Positions 26,114 to 26,356 are shown, numbered from the stretch's first letter. The stretch is DNA of 64,000 nt from Gemella haemolysans (GCF_032567735.1 NZ_JAWHCX010000011.1), one strand, 5' to 3'. A program made the numbers and translations. The notes: generated by a model not told the origin, from the letters alone.

Positions 26114-26150
26114 CCAAAAAGAAAAGACCGTATAGAATTCTATACGGCCC
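26114..26150 (-). terminator. Attenuator terminator in the trpB leader
   Basis: The minus strand reads GGCCGUAUAG-AAUU-CUAUACGGUC followed by UUUUCUUUUUGGGG, about 55 nt upstream of the trpB ATG. Confidence 0.7.
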
Positions 26151-26246
26151 TTTTGCGAAATTTAAAACGATTTTTCTACAGCCGACATAGACACTTTTTA
26201 GAGTACACTAAAGTTGCGTCTACGTCATAAAAACATACACACAACA

Positions 26247-26294
26247 TTATCTACGCCAGTTTTGCCAAGATTTTAAAGTTGTTGTTTGTTTCAT
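26247..26294 (-). CDS. Candidate trp leader peptide MKQTTTLKSWQNWRR (two Trp codons)
   Basis: The ATG lies 8 nt after GGAGG. There are 15 codons, with UGG at codons 10 and 13. It sits between a promoter and the terminator above. Confidence 0.6.
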   Translation of the reverse strand: MKQTTTLKSWQNWRR

Positions 26295-26327
26295 TTGTAG
26301 TTCCTCCTTCTCGTTTTTGTTGTTTTT

Positions 26328-26356
26328 ATTATACACATTATTTTTTAGGAATACAA
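26328..26356 (-). promoter_or_regulatory. Candidate promoter of the trpB leader
   Basis: Minus strand reads TTGTAT, a 17-nt spacer, then TATAAT. Confidence 0.5.

Follow-up and report, generated by a model that had tools for sequence, protein, structure and literature searches.

Tryptophan (Trp) control in Firmicutes is usually ascribed to TRAP and T-boxes. In the TRAP attenuation of Bacillus subtilis, a Trp-dependent choice between antiterminator and terminator is made in the trp leader, and 9–11 GAG/UAG triplets spaced 2–3 nucleotides (nt) are required. The Trp T-box (RF00230) senses the charging of tRNA-Trp via UGG and makes a terminator/antiterminator choice by binding uncharged tRNA directly, with translation being unneeded. 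In enterobacteria, trpL (RF00513) has two Trp codons in a short open reading frame (ORF); a ribosome that has reached the stop codon of this ORF masks the start of the antiterminator, termination is the default outcome when translation is absent, and the terminator stands before the structural gene. Here, we describe an element located upstream of a stand-alone trpB gene in a 64,000-nt stretch of Gemella haemolysans DNA (GCF_032567735.1, NZ_JAWHCX010000011.1), the whole of which is called the window. From its sequence and from folding models, the element is probably a ribosome-mediated Trp leader-peptide attenuator, which reads tRNA-Trp charging via two UGG codons and controls trpB.

The closest described system is the motif called trpB (SRC-39-1), an orphan "strong riboswitch candidate" of unknown function, for which over 900 representatives are reported from Firmicutes and Fusobacteria (Narunsky et al. 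2024, PMC11109978). Its neighbor is most often an uncharacterised ABC transporter gene and occasionally trpB, its hairpins covary and the right shoulder of the P1 hairpin holds an antiterminator, and a protein factor or a classic attenuator was left possible for it (Narunsky et al. 2024, PMC11109978). The Rfam family of this motif, RF04312 (trpB ncRNA motif), matches the window at 26226–26116 on the minus strand with 68.9 bits (gathering score 59) over model positions 1–107 of 107, and the match spans P1, the linker and the terminator. The locus harbors P1 followed by an intrinsic terminator, an antiterminator in the 3′ shoulder of P1, and a position in the 5′ untranslated region, 59 nt before trpB; together with the taxonomic range and the trpB or ABC-transporter neighbors, these make the window's element and RF04312 the same element. 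The Rfam model begins at P1, past the stop codon of a leader ORF, and excludes the Shine-Dalgarno (SD) sequence, the ORF itself, the spacer R2 and a long-range helix, and because it begins downstream of the ORF stop, the leader ORF lies outside the published description of the motif. Though RF04312 is listed as a riboswitch candidate, the evidence presented below assigns the element to leader-peptide attenuation. A literature search found no later work resolving the trpB motif and no prior description of this attenuator. A weak RF04312 match on the plus strand (26184–26292, 23 bits, E 0.97) is not a second element, and it arises because P1 and the region of segments A1 and R2 are near-palindromic.

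None of the known Trp leader families was detected at the locus. The Trp_leader model RF00513 had no match in 25900–26600 at E ≤ 10, and neither the T-box model RF00230 nor any other known leader family matched the window's leader at E ≤ 10, although the same T-box model does detect T-boxes in two related loci (L065, 103.8 bits, and L191, 84.9 bits). Likewise, no TRAP-type (G/U)AG array with 2–3 nt spacing was found in the leader, which contains five UAG triplets lying tens of nt apart. By mechanism, the element is a known type of device, leader-peptide attenuation, but it forms a separate family, unrelated to the leader RNA of proteobacterial trpL. There is no sequence or covariance-model similarity between the two, and the element has six interacting segments where trpL has four, with an extra relay in which R2:A2 pairing is followed by B1:A3 pairing. 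The Trp codons are adjacent in trpL, whereas those of the element are separated by one or two codons, and unlike in trpL, the 3′ end of its leader duplicates the 5′ arm of P1, apparently as a fail-safe. In addition, trpL governs the whole trp operon, while the element governs a lone trpB or an OppA-like gene in Firmicute and Fusobacterial hosts.

The leader ORF reads AUG AAA CAA ACA ACA ACU UUA AAA UCU UGG CAA AAC UGG CGU AGA UAA, preceded by GGAGG. The preliminary description of this DNA, made from the sequence alone, had proposed GGAGG, an 8-nt gap and a 15-codon ORF with two Trp codons at 26294–26247, and all of these were found by direct reading. It had also considered two Trp codons in 15 unlikely by chance, which is borne out by the codon use of the window, since Trp makes up 0.69% of codons in the long ORFs and the probability of two or more Trp in 14 codons is 0.004. 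Just two of the 27 SD-preceded short ORFs within the window contain at least two Trp codons. The other one, on the plus strand with a start near 37374 (MKISLWMVERWCYLLIKPM), may be due to chance. The whole leader also folds more stably than its shuffled versions, with a z of −5.4.

Relatives were searched with patterns drawn from P1 only, with no leader sequence used. A first pattern with fixed spacing, based on the Rfam upper-case consensus, gave 57 matches in the genome collection, from which four Abiotrophia loci were real, and a second P1 pattern gave at least 120 loci in metagenome contigs, about 85 of which, among the matches listed, have a perfectly pairing P1. When the contexts of trpB orthologues were added to the pattern matches, 69 distinct leader-plus-motif sequences were obtained; removal of seven defective ones and trimming from the SD to the U-run left 55 distinct intact leaders, a sample shaped by the search pattern. 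In every one of the 55, an SD lies 6–9 nt ahead of the AUG, UGG occurs exactly twice in frame, and AUG does not occur out of frame. The stop codon (UAA in 54 leaders and UAG in one) is found 16–21 nt before P1, and in every lineage it stands 0–1 nt before the almost invariant R2. Even lineages that lack a pairing partner for the GGAGG retain it.

Substantial variation was observed in the peptides, with 18 variants of 14 to 17 amino acids (aa) in which the N-terminal half is free to vary, whereas the start codon AUG, the two UGG codons and the stop do not change. The peptide families are MKQTTT(L/F)(K/N)SWQNWRR, MKQTTTTIRTWQSWRR, MTFT(A/T)TQSWQSWHR, MKQI..T..RYWQ(N/S)WHR, MKQNFNIQSWQWRR and M(K/R)QN.NIQSWQSWRR. 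The distance from AUG to UGG is 24, 27, 30 or 33 nt, and in an alignment of 24 sequences the insertions and deletions (indels) within the ORF measure 3, 3, 6 and 9 nt, while those outside it are mostly 1–2 nt, with longer ones in the linker and the terminator loop. In one lineage, precisely one codon has been lost from the stretch separating the UGG codons, and both stay in frame. Between lineages, the core of the leader (first UGG to the GGC past P1) is 80–100% identical, compared with 39–57% at the third-codon positions of trpB. The conservation of the leader ORF and its UGG codons, which the preliminary description had proposed as a check, thus extends to all 55 distinct intact leaders.

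Among the seven leaders excluded, six have a broken ORF (L073, L155, L130, L100, L082 and L180). These carry one-base homopolymer differences and were treated as assembly errors; their source is the BNJS, BNJT, BNJU and BNJV assemblies, which often fragment trpB too. The seventh, L096 (an ERZ773042 contig), is of the Fusobacterium type, with P1 and the terminator intact and no trpB downstream; the 5′ half of its leader and R2 have been replaced or degraded, so that it looks like a decaying relic.

From 5′ to 3′, the segments of the element are R1, A1, R2, A2 and B1 (the arms of P1), and A3 and B2 (the arms of the terminator). Helix pairing was scored on the 24-sequence alignment, with controls in which the 3′ partner was slid by 1–3 columns giving 24–57% paired cells. 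P1 is paired in 99.6% of cells with three compensatory pairs, and the terminator in 100% with four. The 9-bp antiterminator B1:A3 is also paired in 100% of cells, with one compensatory GC/AU pair seen in seven sequences, and the 12-bp helix A1:B1, in which B1 takes as its alternative partner A1, whose sequence nearly repeats the P1 5′ arm, is paired in 98.6% with six pairs varying on one side. R2:A2, which pairs at 13 of 14 positions, reaches 92.5%, the only loss being an invariant G.G, and has one compensatory GC/AU pair; R2 tolerates transitions in A2 without changing because it is G/U-rich. In the lineage where the GUUG of R2 has become AUUG, the CAAC of R1 and the CAAC of A2 have both become CAAU. 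When the leader is untranslated, R1 pairs with R2 as hairpin P0, which is part of the minimum free energy (MFE) fold in the window and in nine of the ten lineage representatives.

A long-range helix, P-LR, was also detected, which is new relative to the Rfam model. In the window it joins CUACA to UGUAG, and its counterparts in other lineages are GUCGC/GCGAU, AUUCGCC/GGCGAAU, CUACC/GGUAG and AACUAUC/GAUAGUU. In a 5 × 5 matrix of duplex energies, the own-lineage pair is the best in each row and column, and the sum ranks 1 of 120 permutations. In three lineages P-LR is prolonged by an anti-SD element (CUCC, UCCUU or UUCC). The leader-ORF hairpin and P1 meet in a three-way junction that P-LR closes, and this is the MFE fold of nine of the ten lineage representatives; the MFE fold of the tenth (L064) is A1:B1 plus R2:A2. 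P-LR crosses the antiterminator, so both cannot coexist. In Escherichia coli, a distal segment of terminated trp leader transcripts pairs with the leader ribosome-binding region and limits repeated translation, as was found in the early 1980s. P-LR resembles this sequestration, but it covaries across five lineages and is incompatible with the antiterminator.

The effect of ribosome position was analyzed at the decision point, by folding, for the 55 leaders, the RNA that begins at the ribosome's leading edge and stops where the terminator 5′ arm ends. With the first UGG in the A site, the terminator 5′ arm was captured upstream in 54 of the 55 leaders, and with the second UGG in 44, P1 not being the main state in either case. 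With the stop codon in the A site, capture was observed in a single leader and P1 in 53, while with no ribosome the corresponding numbers were two and 51. The capture is chiefly by R2:A2 and B1:A3; in the lineage that precedes a substrate-binding protein (SBP) gene, R2 pairs with A3 directly. The second UGG and the stop continue to differ in outcome for footprint edges from +12 to +16 relative to the P site. The alternative folds, which the preliminary description could not rank and suggested comparing, are thus separated at the decision point, where ribosome position selects the antiterminator versus P1 plus the terminator. Public RNA contigs, thin at a depth of 2–6× and possibly derived from DNA, contain one pair that gaps over the terminator and another single contig that reads through.

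From these observations we infer that the ORF is translated, that ribosomes stall at UGG and that read-through responds to Trp, and the following scheme is suggested. When Trp is plentiful, the ribosome would reach the stop codon, which is three codons past the second UGG, and would cover R2 there, so that A2:B1 would form P1, A3 would be left free to pair with B2, and transcription would end before trpB. When charged tRNA-Trp is scarce, a ribosome stalled at UGG would cover A1 and leave R2 free; R2 would then capture A2, the B1:A3 antiterminator would form, and transcription would read through to trpB. B1 would therefore be available to the antiterminator only with A1 covered by the ribosome and R2 free for A2. 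Without translation, or once the ribosome is gone, B1 would be sequestered either by R1:R2 plus P1 or by R2:A2 plus A1:B1, and the terminator would form, with P-LR closing the domain either way. The likeness of A1 to A2 looks like a fail-safe that keeps B1 occupied after the ribosome has departed, and P-LR may also lock the off state, being topologically incompatible with the antiterminator.

This scheme retains the reading of the preliminary description as a leader-peptide attenuator, which both the sequence comparison and the folding models support, and amends its pairings. The pairings that it named all exist, namely GGCGUAGA or its near-duplicate GACGUAGAC with UCUAUGUC, and CUAUGUCGGC with the terminator 5′ arm; P1, however, would be opened by the spacer R2 (GUUGUGUGUAUGUU) directly past the stop, and GGCGUAGA, at the 3′ end of the leader, would serve instead as a back-up partner sequestering the P1 3′ arm when no ribosome covers it. 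The start of GACGUAGAC is 20 nt after the stop rather than 26. The proposed check for a T-box by a covariance model gave no match, as described above, and the RF04312 match, the pairing of R2 with the P1 5′ arm and the domain-closing long-range helix are features beyond that earlier account.

Several observations weigh against the attenuator as proposed. The RF04312 consensus cAGA...GAC is unlike every copy among the matches listed, so part of the family lies outside the sample. The lineages are related, with about five to six being independent, and the conservation partly reflects shared ancestry; they are not deeply independent because their TrpB proteins are 85–88% identical and the cassette was probably transferred horizontally. 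The equilibrium fold of the full-length RNA is always P1 plus the terminator, whether the footprint is masked or not, which means that the switch must be kinetic. With a footprint of +11 or +12, a stall at the first UGG exposes A1 and antitermination is lost, and with +11 discrimination at the stop position is lost as well. Conservation of the P1a loop, the AAC bulge and the GGC goes further than a plain attenuator would require. Also, A1 overlaps codons 13–15, which makes the conservation of the second UGG explicable by RNA pairing.

Three rival explanations were considered. A metabolite riboswitch, in which P1 and the three-way junction would be an aptamer whose ligand (Trp, indole or a compound related to them) would stabilize P1, free the terminator and turn trpB off, with the ORF being incidental, has the published standing of the class on its side, namely a strong candidate whose hairpins covary and whose antiterminator sits in the right shoulder of P1 (PMC11109978). 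The conserved three-way junction with its covarying long-range helix, the excess conservation of the P1a loop, AAC bulge and GGC past pairing needs, and a leader core more conserved than neutral sites would suit it too. We nevertheless regard it as improbable, given that an aptamer needs no SD at 6–9 nt, AUG, two UGG codons, fixed stop and multiple-of-three indels amid varying sequence, nor a GGAGG kept where nothing pairs with it, and given that ribosome position alone switches the predicted fold. The same unexplained conservation of the P1a loop (G.GU..) and the junction sequence could point to a translated leader in which the same terminator is also tuned by a protein, tRNA or small molecule bound to P1a or the junction, and a protein factor is left possible by the motif paper (PMC11109978). 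One such two-input device would let leader translation set the fold kinetically while the invariant P1a loop and the three-way junction, closed by the long-range helix that occludes the ribosome-binding site, bind a second signal such as free Trp, indole or uncharged tRNA, and a single leader would then unite a leader-peptide attenuator and a riboswitch-like or T-box-like sensor. Both the general and the specific form appear doubtful, since the loci examined show no linked gene for a candidate factor, the T-box match and the TRAP triplet array are lacking, and the limited divergence of the lineages can account for the extra conservation.

A constitutive leader with a leaky terminator, or a regulation unrelated to Trp, with the Trp codons as a by-product of the A1/A2 duplication, would fit the location of the second UGG within A1, where it is constrained by B1 pairing. 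However, the first UGG, which is not part of A1, is likewise invariant, the one-codon deletion between the UGG codons leaves both in frame, and the controlled genes are trpB and a peptide-uptake protein, with a relative using a Trp T-box for trpB; this explanation is very improbable. The leader-peptide attenuator that we favor would give a testable mechanism to an orphan riboswitch candidate, with the 2024 model suggested to be the downstream half of the attenuator, which matters for ligand screening against RF04312. It would also add a Trp leader-peptide attenuator in Firmicutes and Fusobacteria, of an unusual architecture comprising a six-segment relay, a duplicated fail-safe arm and a covarying helix that hides the ribosome-binding region of the leader.

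The carriers found among the matches listed belong to three genera of two phyla, Gemella, Abiotrophia and Fusobacterium. The window-type lineage is that of Gemella, the MTFT... lineage that of Abiotrophia defectiva, and the MKQI...YWQNWHR lineage that of Fusobacterium (F. polymorphum, F. nucleatum and F. hwasookii). TrpB proteins behind the same leader (L071-type Fusobacterium, L062 of Abiotrophia and the window's Gemella) are 85–88% identical between Firmicutes and Fusobacteria, and the sequences suggest that bacteria of the oral cavity have probably exchanged the trpB-plus-leader cassette by horizontal transfer. A lone trpB probably salvages indole plus serine, and Fusobacterium produces indole in the oral niche.

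The element also precedes a second type of gene. In Gemella (G. sanguinis and relatives), SWQ(S)WRR leaders stand before an SBP_bac_5 lipoprotein of 599–600 aa, an Opp/Dpp-type substrate-binding protein (OppA-like). These copies score 79 bits against RF04312, above the window's score, and fit the "ABC transporter" class of the motif paper. The two-Trp leader thus serves two unrelated genes, either of which may plausibly increase the Trp supply, and the sensor shared by trpB and the OppA-like gene, along with the high TrpB identity, hints at a mobile Trp-starvation module. At the SBP loci L097, L115, L149 and L165, the binding protein is an orphan, its gene having neither permease nor ATPase genes alongside. 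Downstream of the SBP_bac_5 gene come an EamA-family transporter gene with a promoter of its own and an Exo_endo_phos gene. Tandem SBP paralogues without the motif occur in Gemella cuniculi and in several metagenome contigs, and the distant SBP homologues in L188–L190 (61–75% identical) have plain promoters and no motif.

Independent evidence that trpB is controlled through tRNA-Trp charging comes from the T-box in L065 (2045–2276), which occupies the place of the element before a relative's stand-alone trpB (product 80% identical); the specifier loop of this T-box reads ...UGG-G just ahead of the closing helix. A T-box-like leader was also observed in L191 (1196–1442) before a 65%-identical SBP homologue, its score lying below the threshold of 93. 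It was rejected as support for Trp sensing, as its specifier in the canonical register is AUG (Met), with UGG only one base off, and the SBP paralogues may be wired to different amino-acid signals. In L001 (about 2280–2500; metagenome-assembled genome GCA_015473165.1, BNJT01000160.1), TrpB is 98% identical to that of the window, and the leader upstream of the U-run has been swapped for unrelated sequence with small opposite-strand ORFs, the breakpoint being inside the terminator 3′ arm; the change may stem from an insertion or a rearrangement, or reflect a chimeric assembly.

The coordinates of the features, obtained by direct reading and counted along the whole 64-kb window, are listed in Table 1; all parts of the attenuator lie on the minus strand within 26356–26116.

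Table 1. Features of the trpB leader and the regulated gene in the Gemella haemolysans window.
Feature	Coordinates	Strand	Description
Putative promoter	26356–26328	minus	TTGTAT (26356–26351), 17 nt, TATAAT (26333–26328)
Shine-Dalgarno GGAGG	26307–26303	minus	8 nt ahead of the leader AUG
P-LR 5′ strand CUACA	26300–26296	minus	between SD and AUG; pairs with 26180–26176 in the MFE fold
Leader ORF	26294–26247	minus	15 codons, peptide MKQTTTLKSWQNWRR, then UAA
R1 AAACAAACAACAAC	26291–26278	minus	leader codons 2–6; pairs with R2 as hairpin P0
Leader Trp codons	26267–26265 and 26258–26256	minus	
A1 CUGGCGUAGAUA	26259–26248	minus	last base of codon 12, codons 13–15 and first two bases of the stop
R2 GUUGUGUGUAUGUU	26245–26232	minus	G/U-rich spacer beginning 1 nt past the stop; pairs with A2 (anti-P1) or R1
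A2 GACGUAGACGC + AAC	26226–26213	minus	P1 5′ arm; P1 pairing conserved
P1a apical hairpin	26212–26197	minus	UUUAG-UGUACU-CUAAA; 100% paired; in every conformer
B1 GUGUCUAUGUC + GGC	26194–26181	minus	P1 3′ arm; partners A2 (P1), A1 or A3 (antiterminator)
P-LR 3′ strand UGUAG	26180–26176	minus	linker directly after P1
Intrinsic terminator	26153–26116	minus	A3 GGGCCGUAUAG (26150–26140), loop, B2 CUAUACGGUC (26135–26126), U-run (26125–26116)
trpB (tryptophan synthase beta)	24848–26056	minus	stand-alone, 402 aa; ATG at 26056

The terminator reads GGCCGUAUAG-AAUU-CUAUACGGUC at 26149–26126, followed by UUUUCUUUUU, and a terminator scan placed a 14-bp stem with a T-run at 26153–26122 as the sole terminator of the region (0.1 in shuffles). 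Its presence ahead of trpB agrees with the preliminary description, though the U-run ends at 26116 and not at 26114, and the gap to the trpB ATG is 59 nt and not 55. The promoter sequence TTGTAT-17-TATAAT, also put forward there, is present, but the −35 hexamer matches the consensus at only three of six positions and the promoter scan made no call there; the Abiotrophia leader has TTGCAT, 16 nt and TATAAT at the equivalent place. The identity of trpB is given by the NCBIfam equivalog TIGR00263 (626.8 bits, cut-off 392). No trpA adjoins it in the window, and the next gene downstream is a convergent permease gene. Elsewhere in the window, an FMN riboswitch (RF00050, 15093–15205, minus strand, 121.9 bits) and a glmS ribozyme (RF00234, 17646–17795, minus strand, 82.8 bits) were detected.

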